The notes below the pieces were generated by a model. It saw only the letters and a program-made list of their open reading frames with translations, searched no databases and had not been told where the DNA came from. Shown here piece by piece: positions 5,343-39,472 of a DNA stretch of 63,912 nucleotides. Numbering within the stretch: position 1 is the first letter of the stretch; each line of letters opens with the position of its first letter. Origin of the DNA: a virus (Duplodnaviria > Caudoviricetes). The stretch is taken from the IMG/VR virus record IMGVR_UViG_3300037484_000502, positions 1 through 63,912 of that record. One strand, 5' to 3'. Position numbers and translations under genes: made by a program.

Positions 5343-5978
5343 TTACTCTTCCTCTTCGTCTTCGAGGGATAGCACCCACTCGTCGTAGATCTCTTCGAGC
5401 TTGTTCTCTAGCCGTTCCCGGAGTTTCGGCGTGACGAGCTTTTCGTCCTCGTCACTCAGTTCCAGCCCACTGGCTCCGTACATGCCAGTCGTGAGCTGCT
5501 TTGAGCCCTCGGAGACCTCTAGGTCAATGGCTGGGCGGGGACCGCTGTCAGGCTCGAATGTGAGCTTGACCGTCAGTTCCTTCGTCTTGTCTTTCACCTT
5601 GATGGACTTGGTCTTGGACTCCGCAGCGGCCTTAGCCAACTTGATGAGGTCTGATTGAAGGGAGCTAAGGCGAGGCTCTAGGCTGGATCGCTGTCTGGAT
5701 CTGGCGAATTCCTGATCTGCGATGTTCTCTGACAGCTCCTGATAGTAGGTACGCATGTCCAGAAGTTGTCGGAGGTGGCCTTCGTACTCCTTTCGAGCAG
5801 CACTATAATCCTCTGGTGGGTTCAGCTGAAAGTTACGGCCATGCGGAGCTGCTTCGCCCACTGCCTCTACGGCCTTAAGCAACGCACGGTAAGCCTCCGT
5901 GGCTTGCTTCTGCAAAGTGCGTGTAGTATCCCCATTCATGTTTACAATGGGCATCGTTGGCTTGGTCATTGGAATCAC
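5343..5978 (-). CDS. hypothetical protein, two-domain
   Basis: Overlaps stop of upstream gene; internal LQSDLIKLA resembles a degenerate tag. Confidence 0.7.
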   Translation of the reverse strand: MIPMTKPTMPIVNMNGDTTRTLQKQATEAYRALLKAVEAVGEAAPHGRNFQLNPPEDYSAARKEYEGHLRQLLDMRTYYQELSENIADQEFARSRQRSSLEPRLSSLQSDLIKLAKAAAESKTKSIKVKDKTKELTVKLTFEPDSGPRPAIDLEVSEGSKQLTTGMYGASGLELSDEDEKLVTPKLRERLENKLEEIYDEWVLSLEDEEEE

Positions 5979-6790
5979 TCTTCTCTTTGAGCCAGTAGTG
6001 GAAGCAGGTAGGGGCGCAGCTCGGGGTTCTGATATGCGAGTCGGATCGTGGCCGAGCGGAGATTGCCAGCCTTCTTACCCTTACCCTTACCCATAATCTT
6101 GTGCCAGGCGTCAGTGACGAACTCACTGACAGTCCTCTTCCCGTCGGGGTGCTTCTTGACCCATTCCTTGTGGGCGCTCTCGGACTCAGCCTCGATCTTG
6201 TCCCAATCCTCTGGGGTGTATCCCTTGGGCCATTTGGTCTTGTCATCGAACTTGACCCGGTAGAGGGTGGCTCCCGTCAGGTCTGCATCCGTCAGGTCCG
6301 CACCGCTGAGATCCGCGTGGGACAGGTCAACCTTTTGCAGATTGGCGTCCACCAGATTTGCACCTGACAGGTCGGCCTTGGCCAACTGCGTCTCTTTCAG
6401 ATTGGAGTGGCTCAGGTCTGCCTTGGAGAGTTTGGCACCATTCAGGAACGACTGGCTGATGAAGGCACCCTTCAGGTCGGCACCAGAAAGGTCTTCGTCG
6501 TTCAGTGTCCGGCCGGTTACGCCGCCCTCCGCCATGAGTTCTTCCTTGATGGCTTCCGTGCGCTTCTTGCTCTTACCGGGGGCCTTGTCCTCAGTCTTTT
6601 TCCCAGACTCCTCGGTCTTCTTGACCGAGTGATTGGACTTGTCTGCGTCAGGGTGTTCCTTGAGATACTCTCGAAGGGCATCCTGGGTTGCAAACTCCTT
6701 GGCTGTCTTTGCCAGGATGGGTAGAAGGAATGCACGCAGCTCGGGTCGGGAGTGTGCGAGGCGGATAGTCTGACTTCGAAGATTGATCAT
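5975..6790 (-). CDS. pentapeptide-repeat protein with N- and C-terminal LRS..IRLA..PELR..LLPLL tags
   Basis: A(D/N)LSx repeats (ADLSGANLVDANLQKVDLSHADLSGADLTDADLTGA); tag at both ends. Confidence 0.85.
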   Translation of the reverse strand: MINLRSQTIRLAHSRPELRAFLLPILAKTAKEFATQDALREYLKEHPDADKSNHSVKKTEESGKKTEDKAPGKSKKRTEAIKEELMAEGGVTGRTLNDEDLSGADLKGAFISQSFLNGAKLSKADLSHSNLKETQLAKADLSGANLVDANLQKVDLSHADLSGADLTDADLTGATLYRVKFDDKTKWPKGYTPEDWDKIEAESESAHKEWVKKHPDGKRTVSEFVTDAWHKIMGKGKGKKAGNLRSATIRLAYQNPELRPYLLPLLAQREE

Positions 6791-6799
6791 GGTAGAATC

Positions 6800-7735
6800 C
6801 TAGGCAGCCTTAGGCTGTTTAATCGTCTCTGGGTCCGGCTCTTCGCCACGAAGGATAGCCTGCATGTCTTCGTCGGAAATGCCCTTTGCCATCACCTCAC
6901 CTACAGCCACTGTGAGGTACTGGACGAGCGTCTCTTGGTACTCCTCGTCACTGACCTCGGTGTCTGAAGCCATGACGAGATGCTTGAGCACTTCGGTGAT
7001 CGGGTGCATCGCGTGCAGCGCGGTTTCACCAGCTTCAAAGTGAAGGAAGCCGTGGTCTACAACGTGGGAGATGGCCTTCATCCCAACGTGCATCGCGAAG
7101 CTCTTCCCAACACCCGCCACCGCCATGAGAGGACCCCCTCCGGAGGCTGCCAGTGCCGCACCCGCAGCGTACACCGCAACCGAGTACACGGCCGCTCGGT
7201 CTTCCTTGTTCCACTTCTCCACGGGCTTCTTGAAGAGCTTCTTGACAGCGGTCCCCGCGTGCTTGATCTCTTTCAGCTCGCTCTTGGCCTGCTCCCAAAT
7301 GTGTTTCGCTAACTTCTCGGGGGACTTCTTGATGGCGTTGGCAACATTGGTAGTTGCCCTCTTGCGAGCCTCAGGATCCGACACAAACTCTTGCATCTTC
7401 GCGGGGGCCGCCTGAAGGGCCTTCACCATGTCGGCCTTGGCTCCCTTGACCTTCGAGAGAAAACTCTTGAACTTAGCCGCAATCCCTGGTGAGGGCTTGT
7501 CCTCCCCCTTGGGCTTGTCGTGGGAGGTGTCTTCCTCCTTCCCTTTGCCCTCACTCTTCGAAACGGCAACCGTGTGCTTCGAAGCGTCTGCGTCCGGGTG
7601 CTCGTCCAGGTACTTCTTCCGGGCGTCCTCAGTCGGGAACTCCATGGCCGTCTTCATGAGCAAGGGCAGAAGATGCGGTCGTAGCTCGGGGTTCTGGTGG
7701 GCGAGTCGGATGACTTTGGATCGAAGATTTGACAT
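6800..7735 (-). CDS. tagged hypothetical protein (putative virion internal protein)
   Basis: N-terminal MSNLRSKVIRLAHQNPELRPHLLPLLMKTA plus EFPTEDARKKYLDEHPDAD module shared with neighbour. Confidence 0.8.
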   Translation of the reverse strand: MSNLRSKVIRLAHQNPELRPHLLPLLMKTAMEFPTEDARKKYLDEHPDADASKHTVAVSKSEGKGKEEDTSHDKPKGEDKPSPGIAAKFKSFLSKVKGAKADMVKALQAAPAKMQEFVSDPEARKRATTNVANAIKKSPEKLAKHIWEQAKSELKEIKHAGTAVKKLFKKPVEKWNKEDRAAVYSVAVYAAGAALAASGGGPLMAVAGVGKSFAMHVGMKAISHVVDHGFLHFEAGETALHAMHPITEVLKHLVMASDTEVSDEEYQETLVQYLTVAVGEVMAKGISDEDMQAILRGEEPDPETIKQPKAA

Positions 7736-7747
7736 GGTGTTGGACTC

Positions 7748-8599
7748 TCAAACGACTTCGATGCTTTTCACACGTACGTTGCGGGGGTTGAATACGGCCA
7801 CTTCGGGGACGCCACCGACTAAGTCAAACCCATAGTAAACCACACTATCGAATCCTTTGGAACGTGCCTTACTAGCCTGAGATTTACTTTTAGTGATCAA
7901 GGGATTGTTCACTGTCACTACTACTGTGTAGACCTTTGGACGGTAGGTCTTTGAGTCCAGACCTACTGTATCCAGCTCAGCGTATAGCCAATCAGGCGCC
8001 CCCGTGCTTTGACTGAAGATGTTGATTGGGCCGTCATCCGTACTCAGCGGGGTAATCTTGCTGCCAAGGATATACCCACTGATGTCATTGAGCGTGTTGG
8101 GGTCCACACCGCCCAAGAACCTCCCAAATCCAACCGAGTCAAATGTACCCTCACCAGGTGGTGGATTGTCATTCCAGAACCCTGTGGCCTTGGGGTATGC
8201 CTCCCAGGCGTCAGTGCCCATCTCATAGAGGGTCTGTAGCATCCCGCCCGCATTGGGATTCTTTCGCTTCAAGTCGTCTATGATCGAAACGTCAAATCCG
8301 ATGTTCCGATTGGCATCGGCATACCGCATAGCCACCCGCTTGGATGGAGACAGGAAGATGCCCTTGCCGTAGAATCGATTTACAAGCTCGTCCCGGCTCT
8401 TCTCCATGCTAAATGATTTGAAGAGCTTCGTGGTTCCGTGGTACAACACGACGGGCTTGCCTTCTGCCAATCCCTCCAACCCGTACTCGGATAGGTTGAA
8501 TGCCGTTCTTGCGCTCTTCAACAGAGGTAAGAGAACAGGACGCAACTCGGGTTGGGAGTGGGCCAATCGAATCACCTTGGATCGAAGGGTATCTCCCAT
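7748..8599 (-). CDS. tagged ADP-ribosyltransferase-fold protein (ART-PolyVal-like)
   Basis: LYHGT, FYGKGIFLS..A.RYA, NP, KGFDSV, EVAVFNP motifs. Confidence 0.7.
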   Translation of the reverse strand: MGDTLRSKVIRLAHSQPELRPVLLPLLKSARTAFNLSEYGLEGLAEGKPVVLYHGTTKLFKSFSMEKSRDELVNRFYGKGIFLSPSKRVAMRYADANRNIGFDVSIIDDLKRKNPNAGGMLQTLYEMGTDAWEAYPKATGFWNDNPPPGEGTFDSVGFGRFLGGVDPNTLNDISGYILGSKITPLSTDDGPINIFSQSTGAPDWLYAELDTVGLDSKTYRPKVYTVVVTVNNPLITKSKSQASKARSKGFDSVVYYGFDLVGGVPEVAVFNPRNVRVKSIEVV

Positions 8600-8604
8600 T
8601 CAGA

Positions 8605-9015
8605 TCACTTCACTTTGGAGAGGGGAACCGGGCGGAAGTAGAGATCTCGCTCAACCAGGGGCAGTCCCTTCCGGTTTGCGCTCTCAAGCTCATCGAGGGA
8701 AATGTAGCCCAGCTCTCCCTCACCGTGACCCAGATCGGACCAACCAAACATGGTGTCCTGTCCATCGAACTCTGTGACGTACCAGGTTGCACCCGAGTAC
8801 GGAGAGAAGAACTTGACCACGACCATCGGGTCCGGATTCTTTTCCTGCGAATAGAGCTTGGGAAGTTTTGATCGGATCGCCGCTGGCATGAGCTGGTGCT
8901 TGCGTACCCTATCAAGTGGGGACGCCGCGCTCTTTACCAGCAGGGGCAACAGATGGGTTCGTAGCTCGGGGTTCTCGTGAGCGAGTCGAATTACTTTGGA
9001 ACGAAGATCGGCCAT
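8605..9015 (-). CDS. tagged DUF2958-like protein
   Basis: VVKFFSP..GATWYVTE..MFG..DLG.GE.ELGYISLDEL..VERDLYF; start at MADLRSKV. Confidence 0.8.
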   Translation of the reverse strand: MADLRSKVIRLAHENPELRTHLLPLLVKSAASPLDRVRKHQLMPAAIRSKLPKLYSQEKNPDPMVVVKFFSPYSGATWYVTEFDGQDTMFGWSDLGHGEGELGYISLDELESANRKGLPLVERDLYFRPVPLSKVK

Positions 9016-9038
9016 ACCTTCGAACAGAAATAAAGGGG

Positions 9039-9254
9039 TTAGCGGCGGCTCGCAACTCGCCTTGTAATGGGCCACTCGGAGGAGGCCTTCCGGGCTTCGA
9101 TACTCAGCTCTTTGGCTTCTGTAATAGCCTTTCTCACAGTGGAGGCAAATCCTTCCACGGATGGCTGTAGGGCATAGAGATAACCCATGAGTTCCCCGTC
9201 AATCCGTGCAGCTTCATCCGATTCACGACGAGTTCTCTTAGGCTTGGTTGACAT
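9039..9254 (-). CDS. hypothetical protein
   Basis: AGGAG SD; 71 aa. Confidence 0.55.
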   Translation of the reverse strand: MSTKPKRTRRESDEAARIDGELMGYLYALQPSVEGFASTVRKAITEAKELSIEARKASSEWPITRRVASRR

Positions 9255-9256
9255 TG

Positions 9257-9619
9257 TCAGCTCCTATGGTTCCGAAGTTCATCCCTGAGATCCTTAATCG
9301 TGGATTTGGTTTCCAACATCGTTTCTCTGATGGCCTCAACGGCTGCCGTGGCTGCTGCTACCGCCATCGTACTTTGCTTGGATACCTCAAGCAGGGTTGC
9401 CTGCATCTTTGTGTGATCCAAGATTCGTGCCTCTTGGATAGTGTTCTCTCCTGCCACACGTAAGTCCTGGAGACTGGCAATCCTAGCAAGAAGAGATGTT
9501 CTCTCAGCGTTCCCAGCCTTCCACAGAGCCCAAATCACCACTGCAAAAACAATGGTGTTGATCCCAAGAACGCCATATTGGAGGAGAGGATTGAAAGCGG
9601 TCTTCAGGATGTTGTCCAT
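9257..9619 (-). CDS. single-TM plus coiled-coil protein, holin-like
   Basis: LLQYGVLGINTIVFAVVIWALW hydrophobic helix then coiled coil. Confidence 0.5.
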   Translation of the reverse strand: MDNILKTAFNPLLQYGVLGINTIVFAVVIWALWKAGNAERTSLLARIASLQDLRVAGENTIQEARILDHTKMQATLLEVSKQSTMAVAAATAAVEAIRETMLETKSTIKDLRDELRNHRS

Positions 9620-9653
9620 AGGTATGGGAGGCTATAGGAAATCAACCCTTACG

Positions 9654-9998
9654 TTACGGAAAGAAAGAGCCTAATCCCATACAATGTGGGCATGGGATGC
9701 ACACATCACATCCATGCTGGAGTCCCAAAATGGGAATAGTAATCGTCTGAGGAAGTGTGACCGTAAATGGGGTCACACTGATTTCACAATTTCTCGTGAC
9801 TGACACCTTGCAATTCGGGCAACCCGCAGTATCGCCCTGCATGCCACAACTGAGGCATCGTCCATCGGGGCCACACGCCCCAGGCATAGGATGATTGGGG
9901 AGACTGGTGGTGTATCCCCCAGGTAAGGAATGGACAGGTAGATTGGTGGTGTATTTCATGTCCGGGGAATGGACAGGTAGGTTGGTGGTGTATTTCAT
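9654..9998 (-). CDS. Cys-rich hypothetical protein with N-terminal tandem duplication
   Basis: MKYTTNLPVHS twice (39-bp period, 9927-10001); several CxxC. Confidence 0.55.
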   Translation of the reverse strand: MKYTTNLPVHSPDMKYTTNLPVHSLPGGYTTSLPNHPMPGACGPDGRCLSCGMQGDTAGCPNCKVSVTRNCEISVTPFTVTLPQTITIPILGLQHGCDVCIPCPHCMGLGSFFP

Positions 9999-10897: not shown

Positions 10898-13800
10898 GGG
10901 ATGATCTCAATACCTACCAAACCATGGCAGGTAGCTGTAGCGGCTGTAGCCACAACGTTCTGCCAATCCAGATCCTTGGCAGTGGCATTGTCCCGAAGTC
11001 TGACTTGCACGAGGACTGGGCACTTGTTCTCCCCGTTCAAGAAGAGTGGAGCTAGCGCACCAAGATTGACTTCTACCTGGGCGCATTGAATCTGGCTGGA
11101 GGGGTCCGTGATGTCGAACGTGTTGGGGCCCAAGACAAGACAACCCGCACCATCCACAGCCACATCCTGCTTGGATGGTCCAGCGCCATCCGTGCGACCT
11201 ACATCCATCCAGGTTGTGAGACCTGGAACCTTGGCGAGAAGGGCCAGGCCCACGCCACCAGGGGTCGGACCCACGTAGGCAAAGTCCGCGAGGGAAACAC
11301 CCCAGAACTTCAAGATGACAGACTGCTCACCTACGTTCGCAGCCCCCGCATCGAACGCACGTACGAAATACCTCTCTCCTGCACATGCGGAGTAGTCAGC
11401 ACCCGCTGGTGTGTATCCGCCAGCAGCATAGTTATCCTTCGGATAGATGCAGATGCCTCTTGATGGGAAGGGGGCATCCAACCCATCCGTGTACGGCGGA
11501 TTTCGTTCCGGGAGACCAGCTACCTGGGCTTCTGTCGCGACAGCCGGAACACCAGTAAGGGCCAATAGTTGATATGCCCCGAAGTAGTACCCAAGGTAGT
11601 CAGGATCCCCGAGGATAGGGCGGACCGGGACTGAAACTGCGGCCAGACCACCAGGCAAACCAGGACCAATCAGTTGAGCTGCATCCGCAGGGATCGTTGT
11701 AGCCAGAGGCTCCCAGGTCACGGGATACCGGTAGATTTCGTCAAGGAATAGCTCTTCCCGGTCCTTCGTTGTGTTTTGTATGTAGTTCACAACGTTGGTT
11801 GGGTTACCATAGTTGGGCTTGGTGAATCCAGTGTGCTCGAACATCGAGTGAAAAAGGATGCGCGCACCGCCTGCCTCCACTGCTGTAAGACCTGTTGCCG
11901 GAAGTGCAGGGAGTGGGTAACCCGTAGTGATGTCTGTGTTTAAGGGTCGACGGACGAATACCCGGACCTTGGCGTTCTCCGAAAACGCAGGTGTTGCAGT
12001 ATCCCCAGTAAAACCAATCCAGTCAAATGCACCGCCCCCAACCCACAAGACAGTAGCAGCACTTGCCACAGCGGGATTAGTCAACCCACCGAAAAGATCA
12101 GCGAATCCAAATTCGATCCTTTGGCGCTTGACCTTCCCAAGAGAACCTAGGAAAAGTTGTGGGCTAGCAAAAATCCCGATGTCAATCCCACCCACTTCTG
12201 GGCTCTCTGTTCCCTCATAGGAGAACGGGGAAAGGGAAATGAATACCGGGCACTGATTGAGTGCGTCCCCACGATCATCTCCGAAGAGTGGGCCCGCCGA
12301 CGGAACCGCATCGTGAGTCCGATAGCTTGAGTTGAAGACGTTGGTAATGGACAGGTCCAACCCTGTGATGCGGGCAGTTTGAAGCCCTGTAACCGCGTTA
12401 AGGGGCTTGTAGTAGGAGATGCCTGATACCCACGTTACGTCCGCAGCTGTGAACGTGAACGTGTTGTTGGGGCCAACCATCGCGGGTACAGCCGTCCCCG
12501 TGGGGTCTTCACTGACCTCAGAAACATTGACTGGATATGCTGGGGAAGTAGCGGGAGCCGGGAGAGTCAGGTCAATCAGATTGTCGATCTGAGCCGCGCC
12601 ACTCCACGACACCATGTTGACTGAGTAGAGCTTCGCTGCCGTTGGGACAATGCCGTCTCGGACATACTCCTCAAAGTACTGTTCCTTGCGGAAGTGCACG
12701 AGTGCATAACTACCATCTCGGCGAAGGGCTCCAGGCGCTCCTACAGCAAGAACAAATCGGTGCCGGTAGCGGGCAAGTTGAATCGCCCAGTAGTCAGTTG
12801 TGAAGTCGTCGTAGTTCCCAGCCTTGCCCAAGGCACCGGCTGGTGGGATGCCCACGAAATATCGGGTGGTCTCGTCGTCTGGCAGTAGAGGCGTGTAGCT
12901 CAGAGTCGCGTAGTCCGAAAGGTACGGAAGTCGGTAGGCAAAGAAATTGCTGGCCGTACCACCACCAGTCGCCGCTGCGGTGGCACCCAAGATGGGCATA
13001 CCCCCCGCGACTGTTCCCGGGGAGAACGAAACCGCAGTTGGATCCGTCAGCAACCGGACTTGCCCAGCAGTGGGGTCGGCCGCTGGCGGAGGTCCAAACG
13101 TTCGGGAGATACCGGTGTGGATCTCGTCCAGGTCATACTGACCCGCAGCCTGACCCGGGAAATCGTATGGGGTGGGCGAACCCACCGTGAAAATCCCACC
13201 CACTGTTCCGTCGCATCCACCAACGCCAGTTACGATGCCCTTGCCCAGCAGAACCGCTGCCACACAGACATTCTGAATGTCTGCTACAGAAGCTACCGCA
13301 ACAGGGGGCGTCATGAACCCCGCGTCCCACTTGACGAGCGCAAGAACACCACGGTCAGCCGGAGATACAATTCCGGAGACAATGACTTCGGAAGTCGTGC
13401 CGGGAATGATCCTCCAAGACGGGAACCCATCCGCTGCACCACCACCCATGGAGACCGTGGTAAATCCAGCGTGAGCCTCTCCTGGCCCACCTCCCGAATA
13501 CAGCCCATTCACAACGTTGAACACAGGATCAGTCGCGATATCTGTGCCCGTGCCCGTCTTCGAGAGAGGAGCCCTCCAGTAGTAGGGGTAGACCTCTGGG
13601 GCAGTGTTGCCAGACGTGAACGTGAGCGCCCCATCCCAGAGCTTGAGAATGCCCCAGTCAGGTACCCCCGTGTTGATCGCACCCAGCCATGGAACACCAG
13701 CCGAACCCACACCACCAGGTGACGGGGGAACCAACGCCGCCAGCTCTTCCAGGGCCCCCTCAACCTGTCCGGCGAGGTACCTGTCGAAGATGTCCTGGAT

Positions 13801-13959
13801 GGAGATCGCGGAGGCCGCGTGCGCCCCCTGAGGGTCCAGGACGTGCGCATCGAGCGCGACCCCCGTATCCCCAGAGGTAACGGAGGAAGCACTCACGGAA
13901 CCAGGAACAGCGGATCCTGCGCCCGTAACAATCAGAGATGGGTCTAGTGTACGAGGCAC
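10894..13959 (-). CDS. virion structural protein (tail/baseplate associated)
   Basis: 1021 aa G/A/T/P-rich; AH.ASAIS..VEGALEEL motif typical of phage tail proteins; in operon with baseplate genes. Confidence 0.7.
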   Translation of the reverse strand: MPRTLDPSLIVTGAGSAVPGSVSASSVTSGDTGVALDAHVLDPQGAHAASAISIQDIFDRYLAGQVEGALEELAALVPPSPGGVGSAGVPWLGAINTGVPDWGILKLWDGALTFTSGNTAPEVYPYYWRAPLSKTGTGTDIATDPVFNVVNGLYSGGGPGEAHAGFTTVSMGGGAADGFPSWRIIPGTTSEVIVSGIVSPADRGVLALVKWDAGFMTPPVAVASVADIQNVCVAAVLLGKGIVTGVGGCDGTVGGIFTVGSPTPYDFPGQAAGQYDLDEIHTGISRTFGPPPAADPTAGQVRLLTDPTAVSFSPGTVAGGMPILGATAAATGGGTASNFFAYRLPYLSDYATLSYTPLLPDDETTRYFVGIPPAGALGKAGNYDDFTTDYWAIQLARYRHRFVLAVGAPGALRRDGSYALVHFRKEQYFEEYVRDGIVPTAAKLYSVNMVSWSGAAQIDNLIDLTLPAPATSPAYPVNVSEVSEDPTGTAVPAMVGPNNTFTFTAADVTWVSGISYYKPLNAVTGLQTARITGLDLSITNVFNSSYRTHDAVPSAGPLFGDDRGDALNQCPVFISLSPFSYEGTESPEVGGIDIGIFASPQLFLGSLGKVKRQRIEFGFADLFGGLTNPAVASAATVLWVGGGAFDWIGFTGDTATPAFSENAKVRVFVRRPLNTDITTGYPLPALPATGLTAVEAGGARILFHSMFEHTGFTKPNYGNPTNVVNYIQNTTKDREELFLDEIYRYPVTWEPLATTIPADAAQLIGPGLPGGLAAVSVPVRPILGDPDYLGYYFGAYQLLALTGVPAVATEAQVAGLPERNPPYTDGLDAPFPSRGICIYPKDNYAAGGYTPAGADYSACAGERYFVRAFDAGAANVGEQSVILKFWGVSLADFAYVGPTPGGVGLALLAKVPGLTTWMDVGRTDGAGPSKQDVAVDGAGCLVLGPNTFDITDPSSQIQCAQVEVNLGALAPLFLNGENKCPVLVQVRLRDNATAKDLDWQNVVATAATATCHGLVGIEIIP

Positions 13960-13962
13960 GGA

Positions 13963-16900
13963 TTAGGCTCCGACTGTCAGAAGAAGGTTACGCGTTCGGT
14001 ACAAGGCCGCCGCCGTGCGGATCGCTGGAAGGTCCGTGAACGCAATCTTGTTGTCTTGGTCCAGGTCCGCAAAGCGAGACACCACCATCAGTAGCAGCTC
14101 ACCCCTACGAAAGAGAAGCGTGTCCTGCGTTGTCCGCACCAACATCGGCTGCCACACCTTGTGTCGAGTCGGTCCGAAGAGAGGCTGCGTCATAGCTGTA
14201 GGCTTGTAGCCGCCAGGGTTCGCCATGTCGTAGTAGGCACGGAACTCAGGATCCTTGATGGGCCCACGGCCACCCACAGCATATCCCAATTGAATTGGGT
14301 TCGTGCCGTCCACTTGAACGAACGAGTGCAGACTGAGGATGCCCGTTGCGGCCGAAAAGTCCGAAATTGAAACCTCAGCCATCGCCGAGAAGTACCACTC
14401 ACGAGGCACAGCAGCCGGTGGGTTTCCAGTAGCAATGGCTATCTGGTCCAGAGGGGATTCGTAAGGGAATCCCAACTCTGTGGAGCCCTTGCCGGTCTGG
14501 CCCGTCCACACCTCTGATGAGATAGCTACGGGCTCCACGGTCAGTTCCGTTGGCAGCAAGGTAGCAGGGAGTGCCCCCGCCTGTGTTCCCGCAGTTTGTG
14601 GGGCGTTCGTTCGGTAGTAGACCGCAGTCTGGTAGCCTACGGCGCCCGCGTTGGGAACAGGGTCTTGTGGGTAGTAGTCAACCTGAACGAGGGTTTGACT
14701 CACAACAGCGTGATTGAAGATGATCTTCCGTTCGGAACTCCCATAAGTCGTACCCGCAGCAGTTGCTGCGCCATCTGCCACAAGGGAGTCCGCAAAGAAT
14801 CTTCGGGGGAGGTAGCAGGTGTTGACGCCGGATGCAGAGACCACGAAATCGGTAACTATCACACCAGCTGGAGCCGACTTCTGCTCCAGCTTGACTTCAC
14901 GGTAACCTGCACGGAATTTGGGATTTGGGACCCAAGCGGCAAGCATTTCAGGCGGGCGCTGGGCAGGTGCACTCTCGATGATGGGGCCACCCACATACCC
15001 ATTGTAGCCAGAAGCTGGGTCTGGTACTGCGTCCATGTCTGGAGTCTGGGTCAGACCGAAACCCGTTGGGTACGTGATCTCCAACTCGATGAAAATACGG
15101 CGAGTACTACCCAAGTCAACTGCTGGGTCATCCACCACAGGATGGTCCGCAACCACCGGTCCTAGAACCGCAGGGGCATTGACTTGACTTGCGTTGCCAT
15201 CCAAAGTGATTTCAATCAGATTGGTGCCAATACCAACAATGGTTGTGAGTTGGACATGCTGATCAATGGGTACAGCATTGTGTCCATCATCATGGAACAC
15301 CGAGAGAACATCTGTGACTCTGGTGCCCGCTGGCCATACAGCACCCACATTGGTCAAACCAGCTCCGGTGGTCCAATCCTGTAGAGCGTTTGGATCCAGA
15401 GTGTCAAAATCTATGGAGATAAGGTCTCCCTCACACCAACTGTTCACACTGGCTCCAGCCTTCACCACGGTGATTCCCGGAGGAAGAGCACCGGCGGGGG
15501 TCACTTGGAATACCATGCTTTCAACCACACTCTGCGAACCAAACCGACGAGCTACGTGGTCGTAGTTACGGATCACGTTCCCACGAAGAGTTGCGCCAGA
15601 GGCTGGGGCAACACCACCGGAGGCGGCGGTGCGACCAATCTCATCGCAAAACAGGGGATAGGTGGACTGATCGCCAGAGCCATTTCCAATCGTGGCCCAG
15701 TCGGATCCATCCACCTGCCAAGTAGCAGTCTTCTTGTCGAACAGACTCTGTAGTTGGTACTTGAGTTCGGAGCCAAAGTCGTAGCCCGGTGGCGTGACAT
15801 GCCGACGAAGGTCTAGGATGTCAGTTGAGGCAATGATGTCCGCAAATAGACCGTCTGGACGGTCTGAGTTTCCGGCGAGAATCAGGTACGGTCCCGCAGG
15901 ATTGAGATTGGTGTTGTTGAAGTTTATGTGGGCCACCAGGAGGCCGCTATTGGCGGTTGCTGCCGGGTTGAATCCCCCAGTAGCCGTGGCATCCGCCCGG
16001 CGGAAGGCAAAGCAGATGGGTATCGCGTACGCAAATCCATCCACTGTCCCAAGAGCAATGGCCGAAGCCTGGGTGCCGTTCCCTGCGATGTACAGGCCAT
16101 TGTCCTGAATTCCGTACAGGGTTGCATCAGAGTTTGCAGAGATAGTTGTGTTGTTTGCGCGGACAAAGGGATAAGCCGCAACTGGGGCCGCCTGCGCCCC
16201 CTGAGCTAGGATCACATTCTCGAAGCCATCGGGCTGCGTCTTGGGATTGACTCCGCCAGGGGGTGCTGCCGATGTGATTCGGATACGGTACTGGATCTGA
16301 ACTCGTTGCGCGGTCTCGATGTTCAGGACAGGGTCTACAAGCTCGTCTGCTAGGGCCACAGCCAGTGGGCTGTCCACATTGCCATGGCGGTAGATGGTAT
16401 TCTGAGAAGGCTTGTTTGGACGGTCTGCGCCACCCAGTAGAGTCGCAGCCGATAGGAGAATGGACCCGGGGATGGCTTCAACGAAGGCGAGTGTAATGCC
16501 ATTTCCAAGGACACCGCCAAAGGTCGCCGTGATGGTGACCAGGTTCGAACCACTCGTGTTGGCCGCAACGTAGAGAGGATAGAGCCCGTTGGCTGGGTTG
16601 TTGATCGCCGTAGCAAGATTGGTTGCTGTTGCGGCACCTGAGATACCTATTGCGAATCCAGTTGGGCCACCACCGTTCGCCGTGAAGGTGACTGTGGGTC
16701 CGCCTACGGGAATCGCATTGATCGTAACGGTGTCGCCTGCGGAGATTGCAAAGACAGGGTCTACGATCTCCACCGTGCCAATAGCCCGTGGACTTGGTGC
16801 AACCAGTGTCCGCCAGACCTCAAGGAAAACGAAGTCTGTACGCTTGATGTCTGGAGCTACACCCGGAGAGACCTCAGGCACAGGGAGGGTAATCTCGTTC

Positions 16901-17256
16901 GTACCGGGGGTCACCGTGTTCGAGTACTCAACGACGACGGGCATCCCCGCAACAAACGCCGTGAGCTTCGTGAGGTTGAACAGGTTCTCGTTGCCCGCAA
17001 CCGCCGCTGGGAACGTGTAGTCTGAGAACGAGTTGCTACTGGACTGGCCACGGATGAATCCCGATGGAAGCGTGTGCCCCGCAAGCAACAACCTTGCGTA
17101 CTCCGCCGCCCCCTGAGTGAGCTGGAGTTCAGAGTCCAAAACAGCCCGGCCGCTTTGAAAGATGACCGAGTCGAACGAGTACTCGCCAGCCGGAATGTCC
17201 CGGGAAACCGTTGTCGGGTAGGCCGGGTCATCATAGTATCTGCGGGAGATTGGCAT
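13963..17256 (-). CDS. virion structural protein (baseplate/tail-fibre anchor-like)
   Basis: N-terminal SVIFQSGRAVLDSELQ and RTDFVFLEVW motifs of myovirus baseplate/fibre proteins. Confidence 0.7.
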   Translation of the reverse strand: MPISRRYYDDPAYPTTVSRDIPAGEYSFDSVIFQSGRAVLDSELQLTQGAAEYARLLLAGHTLPSGFIRGQSSSNSFSDYTFPAAVAGNENLFNLTKLTAFVAGMPVVVEYSNTVTPGTNEITLPVPEVSPGVAPDIKRTDFVFLEVWRTLVAPSPRAIGTVEIVDPVFAISAGDTVTINAIPVGGPTVTFTANGGGPTGFAIGISGAATATNLATAINNPANGLYPLYVAANTSGSNLVTITATFGGVLGNGITLAFVEAIPGSILLSAATLLGGADRPNKPSQNTIYRHGNVDSPLAVALADELVDPVLNIETAQRVQIQYRIRITSAAPPGGVNPKTQPDGFENVILAQGAQAAPVAAYPFVRANNTTISANSDATLYGIQDNGLYIAGNGTQASAIALGTVDGFAYAIPICFAFRRADATATGGFNPAATANSGLLVAHINFNNTNLNPAGPYLILAGNSDRPDGLFADIIASTDILDLRRHVTPPGYDFGSELKYQLQSLFDKKTATWQVDGSDWATIGNGSGDQSTYPLFCDEIGRTAASGGVAPASGATLRGNVIRNYDHVARRFGSQSVVESMVFQVTPAGALPPGITVVKAGASVNSWCEGDLISIDFDTLDPNALQDWTTGAGLTNVGAVWPAGTRVTDVLSVFHDDGHNAVPIDQHVQLTTIVGIGTNLIEITLDGNASQVNAPAVLGPVVADHPVVDDPAVDLGSTRRIFIELEITYPTGFGLTQTPDMDAVPDPASGYNGYVGGPIIESAPAQRPPEMLAAWVPNPKFRAGYREVKLEQKSAPAGVIVTDFVVSASGVNTCYLPRRFFADSLVADGAATAAGTTYGSSERKIIFNHAVVSQTLVQVDYYPQDPVPNAGAVGYQTAVYYRTNAPQTAGTQAGALPATLLPTELTVEPVAISSEVWTGQTGKGSTELGFPYESPLDQIAIATGNPPAAVPREWYFSAMAEVSISDFSAATGILSLHSFVQVDGTNPIQLGYAVGGRGPIKDPEFRAYYDMANPGGYKPTAMTQPLFGPTRHKVWQPMLVRTTQDTLLFRRGELLLMVVSRFADLDQDNKIAFTDLPAIRTAAALYRTRNLLLTVGA

Positions 17257-17277
17257 CAGGTTAGCTCAGAGTCGCTA

Positions 17278-17934
17278 TCAGTGAGTAAGGCGCCAAGTTA
17301 GCGTGAGTATTGACAAATTCGGCTTTGAAATGGCGCCAAACGTAAGCGCGTTCGCCTGGATGTCCCATAGAGTTAAATCAATCGTAGTGTCGTATGCAGG
17401 GAACACCGAAGGGACTGGATTGAGAACCAGAGGGTTCATTGAGATCGTCCTAAGGAGGCACATCTCATTCAGGGCACCCACGGCCTCCGCCTCGCCGAAG
17501 ATCGTTGTGTAATCCACAATGTTTGTGGGTACTGCGGACACGGCACCCAAAGACGTACGGAACGTCACACTAGAAAATGGCTTACGGGCAATCTCAGCAT
17601 TGAGGTGTCTCTGACGGGCGTCTGCAACGTCAGGATTAAGCACGGGCCCAGTGGCCCCAGTGCCCACTGCAAGCATCGTAATGCCTGAGGTCATTGTGGC
17701 ACCTGCGGCAAAACACATGGCTGCCAAAATTCCGCCGTCCCGCGTGATGAGGTTTTCCTTCTCTTCGTAGTGAAGGACTTCCCCAGTGCGGGAGTCACGG
17801 AGATCAATGATGAACTTGCCATTTGGGCCCTGGGCTACATCCTCGTAGCGCGCAGCTAGACCCATCTTGAAACCCTGCTTTGGCCTACCCATCGAATCAT
17901 TGTGTCTCACAGAGTTGCTCCCGGTAACCACCAT
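17278..17934 (-). CDS. baseplate wedge / tail-fibre N-terminal-like protein
   Basis: ENLIT..G, MLAVGTG, LNAEIARK, EAVGALNEMCL, LTWRL pattern. Confidence 0.7.
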   Translation of the reverse strand: MVVTGSNSVRHNDSMGRPKQGFKMGLAARYEDVAQGPNGKFIIDLRDSRTGEVLHYEEKENLITRDGGILAAMCFAAGATMTSGITMLAVGTGATGPVLNPDVADARQRHLNAEIARKPFSSVTFRTSLGAVSAVPTNIVDYTTIFGEAEAVGALNEMCLLRTISMNPLVLNPVPSVFPAYDTTIDLTLWDIQANALTFGAISKPNLSILTLTWRLTH

Positions 17935-18050
17935 ACGTCTCAGTGAGAGCGCACAGGTGCCTCATGGGGTGTGATTCCATAGGCCACGTAACGCTGGGAA
18001 GGCGTAAGAGACATGCCCGGAATCCAGGCATTCCGAAGAGGAGATCCCGC

Positions 18051-24013: not shown

Positions 24014-24046
24014 CGTTCCACCCTACGGCGGTCAAAGGTGGATTAC

Positions 24047-25470
24047 CGCCCATCCCCGTTTGCACGGGGGATACCAACCAACGCCCGGTTGACCAATGAA
24101 GGCGAACGGTTCATCCCCGCTTGCACGGGGATACTCCTCGACCAGCTCGTCTCTGAGACCGCCGAGGGGTCCATCCCCGCTTGCGCGGGGGATACTCAGG
24201 TATCTGAGGGCAGCCCCCGCCTTATCGAGGTCCATCCCCGCTTGCGCGGGGGATACCCATTGACGTAATAATTTCCGTACCCGTCGGAAGGTCCATCCCC
24301 GCTTGCGCGGGGGATACGTCTCCGCAAACGTTGTGGTGCCCAAGATGGCAGGTCCATCCCCGCTTGCGCGGGGGATACCGACGAGAGCTGTTCGGTGGAC
24401 GTGGAGCCACTGGTCCATCCCCGCTTGCGCGGGGGATACCGGGAGTGCGACGTGCAACAGCAGCGGCTCAGGGGTCCATCCCCGCTTGCGCGGGGGATAC
24501 CCTTGCACCGCCTCGGCCCCTTCGAGAGATCGAGGTCCATCCCCGCTTGCGCGGGGGATACGTGGGATTCGGAGCGACCGCTCGTAGCTCTTCAGGTCCA
24601 TCCCCGCTTGCGCGGGGGATACGAATCGTGGAACTTGCTACCGATGCCGAGACCGGGTCCATCCCCGCTTGCGCGGGGGATACCCTACTTCCGTCTCTAC
24701 CCACACGGCCGCATAGGGTCCATCCCCGCTTGCGCGGGGGATACTAGCATGCCTTGGCCAGGTCCATGTCTACGTAGGGTCCATCCCCGCTTGCGCGGGG
24801 GATACGTCACGTCCAGGCCACAGGACCCTACTAGACGGGGTCCATCCCCGCTTGCGCGGGGGATACGACGCCACGCACCCAGATAGTTCTGTAGGGCAGG
24901 GTCCATCCCCGCTTGCGCGGGGGATACTAGGCTGTGCAGACCGACGGTAGTAGAGGTGGAGGTCCATCCCCGCTTGCGCGGGGGATACCTGGGCAGCCGC
25001 TACCTGAGGGCACGATCAGAAGGTCCATCCCCGCTTGCGCGGGGGATACTCACCGTGAAATTTACCCGCGAGGAGTACTCCATCCCCGCTTGCGCGGGGG
25101 ATACGCCGCTGCCTGCTGTGCACGGGTCAGGACTGAGGGTCCATCCCCGCTTGCGCGGGGGATACCACGGGCGTACGCTTCCGCCGATCACCCGCATGGG
25201 TCCATCCCCGCTTGCGCGGGGGATACAATACGATGCCCCTGGTGCAACTGCTGCCCGGAGGTCCATCCCCGCTTGCGCGGGGGATACTCCTTAGTGGTAA
25301 GCGCCCATGCGTGTTCACGCGGTCCATCCCCGCTTGCGCGGGGGATACGCGGCGTGACGTAAGTGCCAGGCGCTACATGGAGGTCCATCCCCGCTTGCGC
25401 GGGGGATACAGGGAGGCGGGTAGCTGGTAGGTCGTCGCTGCAGGTCCATCCCCGCTTGCGCGGGGGATAC
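24047..25470 (-). CRISPR. type I-E CRISPR array 1: 24 repeats / 23 spacers; repeat GTATCCCCCGCGCAAGCGGGGATGGACC
   Basis: 28-nt repeat, 61-nt period; leader on right, degenerate repeats at left end; one unit shortened by 6 nt near 25050-25104. Confidence 0.98.
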
Positions 25471-25541
25471 TCTGCGACAACTTGTCGCAGGAAAGAAGTC
25501 TGATTCAGTTTTCAGAGATGGAGTCGAGACCCCCTTACTCC
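25471..25541 (-). promoter_or_regulatory. CRISPR leader 1
   Basis: Shares 21-nt TCCATCTCTGAAAACTGAATC and the palindrome CTGCGACA-N3-TGTCGCAG with leader 2; GGAGTAAG (minus, 25534-25541) resembles the promoter motif. Confidence 0.85.
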
Positions 25542-25552
25542 TTTTTCCCGGG

Positions 25553-25560
25553 GGCGTAAG
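25553..25560 (+). promoter_or_regulatory. GGCGTAAG motif 6 nt before cas1 ATG
   Basis: Recurrent motif; no SD before cas1. Confidence 0.55.
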
Positions 25561-25566
25561 TAGTTC

Positions 25567-26463
25567 ATGTTTCTGAAAGGTCGCCTTGGAATCGATGGGG
25601 CGCAGATTGCGCAGGCGGATCGCCATGGGGTACTTTGGTTGGGTCGTGGGATCCTGGATGTTCGGGATGGTGTCGCACGATTCGTGACTGTGGGAACAGA
25701 ATGGCTCCCGGCGGGGGATTACGCAATTCCATTTCAACAATTGTCGTGCGTGGTTTTGGGGCCCGGTACCTCTATTACGCACGATGTACTTAGGATCTTT
25801 GCGGCCCACGGAACTGGTTTGGTAATGACTGGTGAGGATGGGGTGAAGTTCTATGCCAGTATGCCATTTGGCCCGGATGACTCCAGGCGGGCTAGAAGAC
25901 AGGTCGCGATATGGTCAGATGAATCAAAGAGATCACTCCTGGTGAGACGAATGTATGCCTGGCGTATGGGAGAAATCTTCCCAGATGCAAGTCTCGATGT
26001 TCTTCGTGGGATGGAGGGTGCACGAGTGAAGGCATCCTATGAGCATCTAGCACACGCTCACGGAATTACTTGGAAGGGGAGGCAATACGACCGCGGTGAC
26101 CCCGAATCCGCAGATCACCCCAACCAAGCGATAAATCACGCATCCACAGCAGTCAACGCATGTGCAATGGTCGCAACGGCTGTGACTGGCACCATCCCTC
26201 AACTGGGATTCATCCATGAGACGAGTGGTAATGCACTCTGTCTCGATGTTGCGGATATGTTCCGGGAATCTGCGACAGTACCGACGGCATTTGCAGCAGT
26301 GAAAGAGCACCAGAAGGCACCTGATAAGTCACTTGAACGCACAGTGCGTAAGTTCGTGGGAAAGCTGGCACGGAGAACACAGCTTGTTGCTCAGATGATT
26401 GACAAGATCAAGGAGATGTTTGATGGGTGCGACAACGATTCTAGTGACGAGAAACGTACGTGA
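25567..26463 (+). CDS. cas1: type I-E CRISPR integrase Cas1
   Basis: LGPGTSITHD, LRGMEGARVK, LGFIH, LDVADMFR; catalytic E/H/D present. Confidence 0.97.
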   Translation: MFLKGRLGIDGAQIAQADRHGVLWLGRGILDVRDGVARFVTVGTEWLPAGDYAIPFQQLSCVVLGPGTSITHDVLRIFAAHGTGLVMTGEDGVKFYASMPFGPDDSRRARRQVAIWSDESKRSLLVRRMYAWRMGEIFPDASLDVLRGMEGARVKASYEHLAHAHGITWKGRQYDRGDPESADHPNQAINHASTAVNACAMVATAVTGTIPQLGFIHETSGNALCLDVADMFRESATVPTAFAAVKEHQKAPDKSLERTVRKFVGKLARRTQLVAQMIDKIKEMFDGCDNDSSDEKRT

Positions 26464-26770
26464 CCGCTTTCGTGGATTCCTTGCATCATGTACCTGTGAG
26501 GTGGCACCTGGAGTGTACCTCGGTTTCGATATGAACTCTAGGGTACGAGAACGTGTGTGGGATGTTCTTGAATCGTGGTGGCAACTTGGGGACGACGCCA
26601 GCGTTGTTATGGCATGGCCCAAAGCTGATGCACCTGGAGGTATGCGTGTCAAAACTCTCGGTGTCCCACCCGTTGAACTTGTCGAGATTGATGATTTGAT
26701 ACTAACACGTCGGGATGCGGATGCAGAACAACGAACTGTTCTGACGAAGCGGCTGGGCGTAAGAACCTGA
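26423..26770 (+). CDS. cas2: type I-E Cas2
   Basis: RFRGFLAS..EVAPGVY..RVRERVW; follows cas1; start approximate. Confidence 0.93.
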   Translation: MGATTILVTRNVRDRFRGFLASCTCEVAPGVYLGFDMNSRVRERVWDVLESWWQLGDDASVVMAWPKADAPGGMRVKTLGVPPVELVEIDDLILTRRDADAEQRTVLTKRLGVRT

Positions 26771-29451: not shown

Positions 29452-30992
29452 CCAACCATCAAAACGATCTACTGACAGAATCCATCTTCGGAGTCGAAGG
29501 TCGGGATGGACGATCCAGAGTATCTCTTGCGGGCCTTCTAGCGCGCCTTGGACAAGGTGTTCCGACCGAGATGACGGCACTTATGTCGCATCAACAGCAC
29601 CCGTGGCACGCATTTGTAGTACAACTTGCGGCACTGGTTCTTGCTCGAAATGGGGACACTAGACTCGACCGATCGGAAATCGAGTGGTGTGACGCCTTGC
29701 GAAATCTGGCCGGTGGGGAAGAGGCATTCTCTCTTGTCGTCCCTGACCTGTCAAAGCCTGGATTCATGCAGTCCCCGGTTCCTGAGGGCTCCCTATCGGA
29801 TTGGAAGAAAGATCAGGTACACCACACGCCGGGTGAACTCGATGTAATCCCTACTGCGAGAAACCACGATGTGAAGATCGGCAGATTTAGTAGTCCTGCA
29901 CTTGAGCACTGGATCTACGCGCTTGTGTCCCTACAGACGAACGAAATGTTCATGGGCGCTAAGAATTGGGGTATTGCACGCATGAATGGTGGGACTTCAT
30001 CGCGCCCTTGTATCAGTGCTGCCAGAAGTAGCAACTTTGAAGTGCGGTTCACCCGTGACGTGACAACGTGGCTGCAAGAACGCGAGAGACTCGTTCGTGA
30101 ACGTGGTTACGATTCCGCTGGGATTGGACTCGTGTGGGCTGCCCCCTGGGATGGCGAACAGAGTCTGGCACCCTCGGACTTAGATCCTTTCTTCATAGAG
30201 GTATGTCGTAGAGTCCGATTTGTGTCGAATGGGTGTGGTGGATTACAAGCACACTATCGCCCTACTAACGTCTTACGAATCTCACCAATGGGGATGCCAA
30301 AGGCATACGGTGCAACGGGTGACATTTGGACTCCCCTTAAAACCAAAGATGGCGGTTCCCTGACTGTTTCCTCGAATGGTTTCGACTATAGAACTCTTTC
30401 AGACCTACTATTCAGTTCTGACTGGCGCCAAAGCCCCTCACAGATAGTACGAAAGGAAGACGGCCCTACCCCTGTACTGATTGCATGTGCGTTAGCGCGT
30501 AAGCAAGGTGGGACTGAGGGACTTCATGAGCGTGTCATCCCTATCCCAGAGAAAGCGAAGAGATGTTTTGCTTCCCCTGGGGATCGTGTGCAGATTGGCA
30601 AGGTGGCGAAGGACCGGGTCGCCCGCGTATTGAAGATGCGGGACGGTGTCCTCAAGCACGCACTCCTCGCTATAGTCCAAGGGGGCCCTACCAAGATCAA
30701 CTTCAAGGACAAGAGCGCCAAAGTCCATCTAGATGCCTTCGAGCAACGTATTGATGGCCTGTTCTTCGAGCACCTCTTTGATGCGATAGGTCTTGAACCA
30801 GAAGAGTCTGAATCCCTTTGGGATGCCCTTCTCCTCAAAGAGGCGAAAGACGTGAAGAAGCGTGCGGAGGGTACACTCACGATTCCTATCTCACGTCGGT
30901 ACAAGGCACTTGCCGCAGGGGACCGCACCTTTCTAGATTCGTCCAAGAAGCATAAGTTTTACCGGCCTGTTCCCGATACTGGAGCCAAATGA
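29448..30992 (+). CDS. cas8e: Cascade large subunit Cas8e/Cse1
   Basis: HQQHPWHAFVVQLA, NWGIARMNGG, LDPFFIEVCRRVR; position after cas3. Confidence 0.9.
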   Translation: MTNHQNDLLTESIFGVEGRDGRSRVSLAGLLARLGQGVPTEMTALMSHQQHPWHAFVVQLAALVLARNGDTRLDRSEIEWCDALRNLAGGEEAFSLVVPDLSKPGFMQSPVPEGSLSDWKKDQVHHTPGELDVIPTARNHDVKIGRFSSPALEHWIYALVSLQTNEMFMGAKNWGIARMNGGTSSRPCISAARSSNFEVRFTRDVTTWLQERERLVRERGYDSAGIGLVWAAPWDGEQSLAPSDLDPFFIEVCRRVRFVSNGCGGLQAHYRPTNVLRISPMGMPKAYGATGDIWTPLKTKDGGSLTVSSNGFDYRTLSDLLFSSDWRQSPSQIVRKEDGPTPVLIACALARKQGGTEGLHERVIPIPEKAKRCFASPGDRVQIGKVAKDRVARVLKMRDGVLKHALLAIVQGGPTKINFKDKSAKVHLDAFEQRIDGLFFEHLFDAIGLEPEESESLWDALLLKEAKDVKKRAEGTLTIPISRRYKALAAGDRTFLDSSKKHKFYRPVPDTGAK

Positions 30993-31543: not shown

Positions 31544-31574
31544 CAACCGAATCACAATGTACATGGATAACTCA

Positions 31575-34239: not shown

Positions 34240-34289
34240 AATCCATCTCTGAAAACTGAATCGGAGCCCCTGCGACAACCTGTCGCAGA
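34240..34289 (+). promoter_or_regulatory. CRISPR leader 2 (50 nt)
   Basis: Conserved blocks 34242-34262 and 34270-34288 shared with leader 1. Confidence 0.85.
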
Positions 34290-39467: not shown

Positions 39468-39472
39468 GGTGA

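Follow-up and report, generated by a model that had tools for sequence, protein, structure and literature searches.

A short portable peptide on unrelated proteins of huge phages related to phage G, a candidate address for loading into the head

The diverse internal proteins of the T-even phages have nothing in common but a capsid targeting sequence (CTS), by which they are encapsidated into the scaffolding core (PMC3012670), and the ADP-ribosyltransferase (ART) Alt of phage T4 is packaged and injected, the genes of the Alt family being linked to baseplate genes (PMC5512222). Polyvalent proteins, which are predicted to be co-delivered with the DNA, join 2-15 conflict-related domains in one polypeptide (PMC5512222). 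In phage P22, a helix-turn-helix of the scaffolding protein is indispensable for binding to the coat (bioRxiv 10.1101/2022.12.13.520362), and the loading of foreign cargo into P22 particles via the scaffold has been reviewed (PMC9962691). Here we describe a peptide tag of ~24-27 residues that recurs on unrelated proteins encoded by the linear IMG/VR viral record IMGVR_UViG_3300037484_000502 (63,912 bases, CheckV completeness ~7%; this whole stretch is called the window below) and by related phages. There is hardly any doubt that selection maintains this peptide as a portable interaction module, one that belongs specifically to a single clade of huge phages. As a tentative reading, to which we give somewhat less than an even chance, we propose that the tag could be a removable docking peptide that would load effectors into the prohead and then be trimmed, with its partner, destination, cleavage and injection all putative.

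A six-frame pattern scan with the consensus LRSxxIRLA(H/Y)xxPELRxxLLP(L/I)L found exactly five copies in the window, all on the minus strand and carried by four adjacent genes, here called g1 to g4 (5975-9015; Table 1), four of them at N-termini and one at a C-terminus, as a first-pass annotation made from the letters alone had reported. The alignment of the five copies has 15 invariant columns, and a hidden Markov model (HMM) built from them gave the copies 64.5-77.2 bits (E 3e-22 to 2.6e-18), the next match in the window reaching 8.6 bits. The KTA or KSA that had been read after the N-terminal copies is indeed there, as KTA in g1 and g2 and as KSA in g3 and g4, with a single extra residue separating LLP(L/I)L from K in g1, g2 and g4; the C-terminal copy of g1 is preceded by GKKAG. 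The stop-to-stop frame of g4 extends to a GTG at 9075, and its start was taken at the ATG at 9015 because the tag then lies 3 residues after the Met, like the other copies. The gaps between the four genes are 5-12 nucleotides (nt).

The cargoes of these genes were described as unrelated, and the Pfam search agreed: g1 matched Pentapeptide (PF00805, 1.1e-22), g3 ART-PolyVal (PF18760, 3.9e-12, the match being limited to residues 46-97 against profile positions 3-47 of 140) and g4 DUF2958 (PF11171, 5.2e-19), while the cargo of g2 had no Pfam family above threshold and no family was found for it. Conserved relatives of g2, of 295-312 amino acids (aa), are present in metagenomes; an ESM Atlas search with its cargo, whose own model was poor, gave nothing above 0.83. 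No solved-structure sequence relatives of g3 and g4 were found. Downstream of the tag, g1 and g2 also have in common a second motif, EFxTxDAxxxYLxEHPDADxSxHxV, a loose regular expression of which matches 40 of the 281 stored tagged proteins; two other linker motifs, C(E/D/G)KLPxGxM and NPxTGxxV..(S/T)L, recur in 13/281 each.

Table 1. Location and description of the tagged genes, the tag copies and other features of the window and of related phage sequences.
Feature	Position	Strand	Description
g1	5975-6790	(-)	271 aa; tag, EHPDAD-type mini-motif, K-rich linker, pentapeptide repeats, second tag
g1 N-terminal tag	6701..6790	(-)	MINLRSQTIRLAHSRPELRAFLLPILAKTA; residues 1-30, MINLRS...LLPILAKTA; 71.6 bits
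g1 mini-motif	6623..6700	(-)	KEFATQDALREYLKEHPDADKSNHSV; directly after tag
g1 C-terminal tag	5978..6067	(-)	GNLRSATIRLAYQNPELRPYLLPLLAQREE, then stop; last 30 residues, GNLRSATIRLAY...LLPLLAQREE; 64.5 bits
g2	6800-7735	(-)	311 aa; tag, EHPDAD-type mini-motif, K/E-rich region, hydrophobic segment
g2 N-terminal tag	7646..7735	(-)	MSNLRSKVIRLAHQNPELRPHLLPLLMKTA; 77.2 bits
g2 mini-motif	7568..7645	(-)	MEFPTEDARKKYLDEHPDADASKHTV; directly after tag
g3	7748-8599	(-)	283 aa; tag and ART-PolyVal-type ADP-ribosyltransferase domain
g3 N-terminal tag	8510..8599	(-)	MGDTLRSKVIRLAHSQPELRPVLLPLLKSA; 69.1 bits
g4	8605-9015	(-)	136 aa from the ATG at 9015; tag and DUF2958
g4 N-terminal tag	8926..9015	(-)	MADLRSKVIRLAHENPELRTHLLPLLVKSA; 70.3 bits
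485-kb phage head module, gene 1			474 aa; head maturation protease, phrog_18299, 1.9e-10
485-kb phage head module, gene 2			422 aa; scaffold-like, extremely K/E-rich, without tag
485-kb phage head module, gene 3			134 aa; tagged
485-kb phage head module, gene 4			228 aa
485-kb phage head module, gene 5			291 aa; major capsid protein, phrog_2522 2.1e-47, PDB 6WKK 'Gp27 major capsid protein' 1.2e-59
Head-module region with shared leader, 485-kb phage	12707-17999	(-)	MDFAxRCDLLSD...K-x-A-(S/G), in 221-aa and 152-aa head-module proteins
GIY-YIG-like open reading frame, 485-kb phage	16115-16975		inside the head module
Divergent tag, 406-kb IMG/VR record	171246-171335		C-terminal, on a 1,305-aa open reading frame
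Untagged gene, window	5343-5978	(-)	211 aa; acidic tail EDEEEE; no family found
Cys-rich open reading frame, window	9654-9998	(-)	114 aa; just upstream of the tagged cluster
Cas block, window	24044-36037	plus	type I-E-like; open reading frames up to 34239
CRISPR array, window	24044-25470		24 repeats
Cas3, window	26770-29451		Cas3_HD, 2.3e-30
Cas7/CT1975-like, window	31455-32810		1.8e-80
CRISPR array, window	34285-36037		29 repeats
Baseplate-type genes, window	36042-40591
GIY-YIG/NUMOD3 homing endonuclease, window	41496-42281	(-)	just downstream of the baseplate-type genes
DUF4419 protein, window	45860-46915	(-)	6.6e-64
Pyruvate-kinase-barrel-like match, window	51813-52826	(-)	9e-13
Actin-like protein, 167-kb viral contig	7738-9951	(+)	737 aa; Volactin, 5e-69

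The likeness of the five copies lies in the peptide. At 13 of the 15 invariant residues at least two codons are used, the 69-nt cores have pairwise nucleotide identities of 0.55-0.84, and between any two copies 7-14 of the 16-21 codons encoding the same residue differ. Because the codons vary and the cores are diverged to this extent, it is the peptide and not the DNA that has been maintained, by purifying selection, and the copies are old; the same data rule out a recent DNA duplication as their origin. The copies do lie at gene and domain boundaries, where a feature of the DNA itself (a site of recombination or shuffling, say, or a regulatory element) might be placed and might conserve the peptide as a by-product, but this explanation is contradicted by the heavily diverged synonymous sites and by the presence of copies at both 5′ and 3′ gene ends, and we consider it scarcely credible. 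Together, the alignment, the cargo families, the codon data and the profile search described below bear out the idea of a modular tag on unrelated cargo.

With the five-copy alignment as query, 44 loci were found on IMG/VR contigs of 8-407 kb, often several per contig. The HMM scan of these loci (at least 27 bits, duplicates removed) gave 78 distinct tagged open reading frames (ORFs) with 83 copies, of which ~66 are N-terminal, 9 internal and 8 C-terminal; an automatic rule returned 69/9/5, three of its 'N' calls being really C-terminal copies preceded by a Met. In 185,579 prokaryote species, each represented by one genome, the same query had just one locus, on a 1.3-kb contig of a metagenome-assembled genome. 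The tag is therefore not a common cellular domain, which was the possibility that the first-pass annotation had set against its own proposal. Among 50,697 GenBank phage records, tblastn found the tag in one, that of an uncultured 485-kb phage, at 11 places, and in no cultured phage; a protein with four tags, used as tblastn query against GenBank phages, gave no match, possibly from low-complexity masking. No model for the tag was found with NCBIfam on 8 tagged proteins, no family covering it is present in PHROGs, and no published description of the motif was found in the main texts of the collection of papers searched.

A profile of 80 tag sequences, searched against 1.84 billion representative proteins, matched 4,364 of them at E<=1e-3, 982 at E<=1e-10 and 13 at E<=1e-30; the sources are nearly all metagenome collections and the names almost all 'hypothetical protein'. 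The best 150 of the 4,364 matches were used further; they were ranked by summed score, which biases them to multi-copy proteins, and they carry 2-7 matched stretches each (up to 6 in a separate tag mapping). When the tag was mapped on 192 proteins, namely these 150 and the matches of one further search, 155 copies were N-terminal, 182 internal and 61 C-terminal, so that the tag is more than an N-terminal leader. Arrangements as N...C 'bookends' or as N-I-C recur often.

Most tagged proteins have no Pfam domain. In 76 tagged proteins from the viral loci the families recognised were DUF2958 (2), DUF5710 (2), ART-PolyVal (2), RNA_ligase, Pentapeptide, DUF7919, ParBc_2, SH3_2 and Fer4_19. A second set, of 110 representative multi-tag proteins, was taken in rank order from the 192, leaving out those shorter than 90 aa and those beyond a total of 49,000 residues; 12 families were recognised in it, among them DUF7717 (2), DUF7007, WGR, RelA_SpoT, GNAT, DUF6706 and TFIIS_M, and few units had a recognisable domain. 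In the tagged proteins scanned (76 and 110) there were no core replication, transcription or virion-shell domains, and the anchors usual in polyvalent proteins, of the MuF and metallopeptidase (MPTase) types, did not turn up either. Judged from their families, the identifiable cargo domains (ART-PolyVal, ParBc_2, RNA ligase, RelA_SpoT, GNAT, WGR and pentapeptide) would be compatible with injected, host-manipulating effectors.

Some of these types of domain, namely ART, ParB-type nuclease and RelA/SpoT, are also known from polyvalent proteins (Iyer et al. 2017, PMC5512222); both kinds of protein are arranged as beads on a string, and delivery with the DNA is proposed in both cases. The annotation had placed both ART and DUF2958 domains in polyvalent proteins; this stood for ART, by its Pfam family name and by PMC5512222, and is putative for DUF2958, a term with 0 occurrences in the main text of that paper. 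Unlike the polyvalent proteins, the proteins described here are mostly the products of separate small genes each with the same short tag, of which the parts of PMC5512222 consulted give no description; multi-unit tagged proteins exist, and the four genes of the window are separate ORFs.

Over 410 copies the consensus is (S/T/N/D)-L-R-S-x-(L/V)-I-R-L-A-(H/Y)-x-(N/K)-P-E-L-R-x-x-L-L-P-L-(L/I/V)-K-x-A-A, in which three arginines and two prolines are near-invariant around a core of leucines; the best-conserved positions are L0 (96%), R1 (94%), R6 (80%, and K in a further 16%), L7 (95%), A8 (99%), P12 (99%), R15 (99%), L19 (94%) and P20 (98%). AlphaFold2 predicted every modelled tag as a helix-kink-helix, with a block-mean predicted local distance difference test score (pLDDT) of 76-87 in a 63-aa two-tag protein (P0114) and 74-92 in an 86-aa one (P0125). 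The 63-aa protein was modelled with helices at 6-16, 18-29, 37-50 and 52-62 (mean pLDDT 79.7, predicted template modelling score (pTM) 0.57), and in the 86-aa protein the two tags are joined by a 34-residue linker of pLDDT ~51-53 and without secondary structure; because pTM is 0.29 in this protein, no packing of tag on tag is predicted across the linker. Foldseek of the two-tag model against PDB returned 0 matches at E<=0.001, and the tag sequence profile against PDB a single chance-level match (E 2.7).

The tag resembles the leucine-rich repeat variant (LRV) repeats (PF01816, PF25591), which are also helix-helix units of ~24 residues with the pattern (V/I)R.A...NP....L..L, and differs from them in being phage-restricted and mostly single at protein ends, not in solenoid arrays; a single tag, the C-terminal one of g1, scored 15.1 bits against LRV_2, below the Pfam cut-off of 27. 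This likeness and the confident, autonomous predicted hairpin would suit a structural or solubilising cap, in which a terminal helix pair would make small domains stable or oligomeric and would neither target them nor bind a shared partner. However, thousands of unrelated cargoes have the surface arginines in near-invariant form, which by itself indicates one common partner; the linkers between tag and cargo are disordered, and the tag keeps to one phage clade, with next to no occurrence in cells. Taken together, these three features argue for one common partner and against the cap, an explanation to which we give little credence.

At least two copies are present in 172 of 277 tagged proteins, a set biased by the ranking of top matches by summed score. 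Some proteins are nothing but tags on charged linkers, such as one of 63 aa with two tags and one of 321 aa with four, and at least 17 consist of tags and short linkers that are at least 38% charged. The segments between tags (n=222) have a median of 158 aa, 22 of them being no longer than 15 aa, and are 38.7% charged (K 15.4%) with a net charge of ~0. Such proteins would be expected of a sticker-and-spacer network, in which the tag would bind itself or a hub protein and recruit enzymes to an intracellular body made by the phage (a factory or condensate) or to an inner-body-like matrix, without proteolytic removal, the multi-tag and tags-only proteins acting as scaffolds and the single-tag enzymes as clients. 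One of the 110 multi-tag proteins matches the LRV array PF01816 (3.2e-11), so that adjacent tags may stack. On the other hand, the absence of predicted tag-tag packing in the 86-aa protein speaks, weakly, against a network, most tags per genome are on single-tag ORFs, and neither the (K/R)-x-A flanks nor the match between natural ends and putative cuts, both described below, would be explained; we hold this network, with its scaffolds and clients, to be rather unlikely. If it were nevertheless correct, it would point to an undescribed protein body in huge phages. According to a variant that we rate lower, as distinctly unlikely, LRV-like units would stack in trans and the hairpins of dozens of different proteins would co-assemble with tags-only linkers, as a 'molecular velcro', into a shared superhelical or gel-like core, either as an inner body of the giant capsid or within infected cells; this would be unlike one-to-one targeting of a leader to a receptor and would account for the multi-copy and tags-only proteins.

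In its literal form the K(T/S)A reported from the window follows just 40 of 375 copies; the wider (K/R)-x-A stands directly after LLPLL in 169/375, or in 242/375 when an offset of one residue is allowed, whereas the per-position background of these proteins is 2.2%. Past LLPLL, the first residue is K in 53%, the next E/K/S/Q/T and the third A in 42%, and before the copies that have upstream sequence K is found in 40% at -4, A in 37% at -2 and S in 38% at -1; (K/R)-x-A thus flanks the tag on both sides, including upstream of internal copies. N-terminal copies most commonly have 3 residues ahead of the first Leu (83/197), and a hypothetical cut after the nearest upstream K/R would leave the same commonest remainder of 3 residues in the other copies (69/213). 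C-terminal copies most commonly end one residue past LLPLL (18/48, 16 of these ending in K/R), the very position at which the nearest downstream K/R of the other copies lies in 226/362. Read from sequence, the natural ends and the flanks fit a unit clipped beside the flanking K/R, the cleavage itself being putative.

The flanking (K/R)-x-A could also be processing sites if the tag were a recognition element for a phage protease, unfoldase or chaperone, that is a degron or adaptor tag timing the destruction or activation of accessory proteins. The tag is used at either terminus, and degrons of the ClpX type work at both as well. Phage G, which has a related capsid protein, encodes ClpP and ClpX (PMC12484599). 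A conserved 24-residue hairpin, predicted to be folded and with invariant Arg and Pro, would however be unusually elaborate for a degron, and the tags-only proteins make little sense as substrates, leaving this explanation improbable.

The tag is nearly confined to uncultured huge phages with a phage G-like capsid protein. The window belongs to this clade, since its 1,718-aa protein is 59% identical over the full length to a protein of the 485-kb phage, and in the head module of that phage a tagged gene stands between the protease and scaffold-like genes on one side and the capsid gene on the other (Table 1). The capsid protein of the 485-kb phage matches a solved structure of gp27, the capsid protein of phage G (PMC12484599), and no match was obtained with the T4-type gp23 capsid family (PF07068), the control for which found nothing either. 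Among 491 related viral stretches, the best 80, which lie on contigs of up to 619 kb, have 89-100% identity to the capsid protein of the 485-kb phage, and at least 8 of those capsid-bearing contigs also carry tags. The tag is present in 8-12 copies each in four large fragments and in the 485-kb record, and five further large genomes have 25, 19, 3, 1 and 0 copies. The single, divergent tag of a 406-kb IMG/VR record (Table 1) is a separate case, in that the record is labelled as provirus by IMG/VR, unlike the other tag-bearing records. As a further observation on the 485-kb phage, a leader other than the tag is common to two of its head-module proteins (Table 1), the smaller of which also has a segment, AAGELPPALQKINDEKAEKA, in common with the 422-aa scaffold-like protein; this hints at K-x-A junctions after more than one kind of leader.

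Loading into the prohead is the reading we favour because of the T4 CTS precedent, the effector-like cargo, the junctions on both flanks and the presence of a tagged gene inside the head module. The hairpin would bind a common partner in the assembling prohead, which might belong to the scaffold core, to the inner surface of the capsid or to the region of the portal, and the tagged enzymes would thereby be built into the head. The head maturation protease would then trim the tag at the flanking (K/R)-x-A junctions, and the freed enzymes (ADP-ribosyltransferase, DUF2958, pentapeptide protein and others) would enter the host with the DNA. The clade of phage-G-related huge phages places the tag on a large set of accessory proteins that turns over fast, both at protein ends of either kind and between domains.

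Several observations weigh against head loading with trimming. The 422-aa scaffold-like protein of the 485-kb phage is without the tag, there are no head genes in the window, and tags-only and multi-copy proteins exceed the needs of a simple leader. A 375-kb genome rated 100% complete is free of tags while its capsid protein is 89% identical to the query capsid; as a relative without tags keeps a near-identical capsid protein, a capsid receptor, if there is any, does not need them. A tag lies within the ~8-kb flanks in 17 of 80 capsid loci, always co-directional with the capsid gene, which is about as expected from 8-25 tags per 250-500 kb in tag-rich genomes (an estimate made without a formal test). 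The same ends and flanks that suggest clipping would fit equally well a folded module bordered by basic and helix-capping residues, and the K-x-A of the flanks and the S at -1 might cap helices and not mark cuts. A complex prediction with the capsid protein and the tag of the 485-kb phage scored 0.00 and gave no verdict, which is evidence neither way. Linkage of the tagged genes to the capsid gene, considered as a property in its own right, was rejected on the 17/80 loci.

In the T4 CTS system (IPI-III, Alt) a short peptide is likewise the sole common feature of a diverse, defence-related cargo (PMC3012670), this cargo includes an ADP-ribosyltransferase (PMC5512222), and a candidate cut site lies beside the tag in both. 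The tag described here differs from the CTS in its sequence and predicted hairpin, in being also C-terminal and internal with up to 7 matched stretches per protein, and in that the capsid is of the phage G type and not T4 gp23, the system being known from sequence alone. It is also longer, ~27 residues against ~10, and is followed by (K/R)-x-A and not by the T4 prohead-protease motif, hydrophobic-x-Glu. The cargo-loading peptides of encapsulins are short, sit at the N- or C-terminus of unrelated cargo and dock inside an HK97-fold shell, and they are not known to be cleaved; the tag is like them in its terminal position on unrelated cargo and unlike them in that the shell would be a phage capsid that also holds DNA, and we know of no sequence relation between the two. 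With the coat-binding helix-turn-helix of the P22 scaffolding protein it has in common a small two-helix unit, here a predicted hairpin with invariant basic residues, but no sequence relation was found and the scaffold-like protein of the 485-kb phage does not have the tag. As a proposed capsid-targeting leader, the tag would be different from the known kind in sequence, predicted fold, flexibility of position, copy number, flanking motif and capsid lineage.

If the assignment to head loading is true, a whole clade of giant phages would carry a large and rapidly exchanged arsenal of pre-made enzymes into the host, and the tag would be a simple sequence key for listing such proteins in metagenomes (4,364 clusters, most without a known domain). 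The idea of T4 internal proteins would be extended to another capsid lineage, to another protease site and to tags that are C-terminal, internal or present in several copies. A 27-residue tag, predicted to be folded and working at either end, could serve protein packaging in capsid-like particles.

The tagged cluster of the window is tightly packed and co-directional with ORFs of 1,021, 1,097 and 1,718 aa, the second of which has a weak tail-sheath PHROG match (E 9.8e-4); no solved-structure relatives of the 1,097-aa protein and of a 1,141-aa protein of the window were found. Tagged genes of other contigs are also flanked by homologues of the 1,718-aa and 1,097-aa proteins, and the clustering of 543 ORFs from the 44 loci and the first 26 kb of the window gave no universal untagged neighbour; DNA methylases, a VWA protein and a Ros/MucR-nuclease are among the neighbours. 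Between 4800 and 11200, a promoter and terminator scan marked 3 promoter-like sites, against a mean of 2.7 in shuffled sequence (sd 1.8), and 10 terminator-like sites, against a mean of 5.9 (sd 2.6), none of either kind on the minus strand inside the tagged cluster. The untagged 211-aa gene and the g1 stop overlap by 4 nt, and this gene might be translated together with the tagged ones; at the other side of the cluster, the 114-aa Cys-rich ORF has a duplicated start segment, MKYTTNLPVHS.

Farther away, baseplate J and a gp25-like sheath initiator lie ~27 kb from the tagged cluster, past a CRISPR-Cas block that stands between two minus-strand gene blocks. The two CRISPR arrays flanking the Cas genes have the same repeat in opposite orientation and a spacing of ~61 nt; ORFs inside the arrays (e.g., 24032-24601 and 35253-35858) are spurious, and no cas1 or cas2 was identified in the block. 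GIY-YIG-type ORFs are present both next to the baseplate-type genes of the window and in the head module of the 485-kb phage (Table 1), and the DUF4419 and pyruvate-kinase-barrel-like matches of the window are unusual for a phage contig. On a 167-kb viral contig, the actin-like protein encoded beside tagged genes is split by an intein splicing domain (3.3e-15) that comes with an HNH endonuclease.

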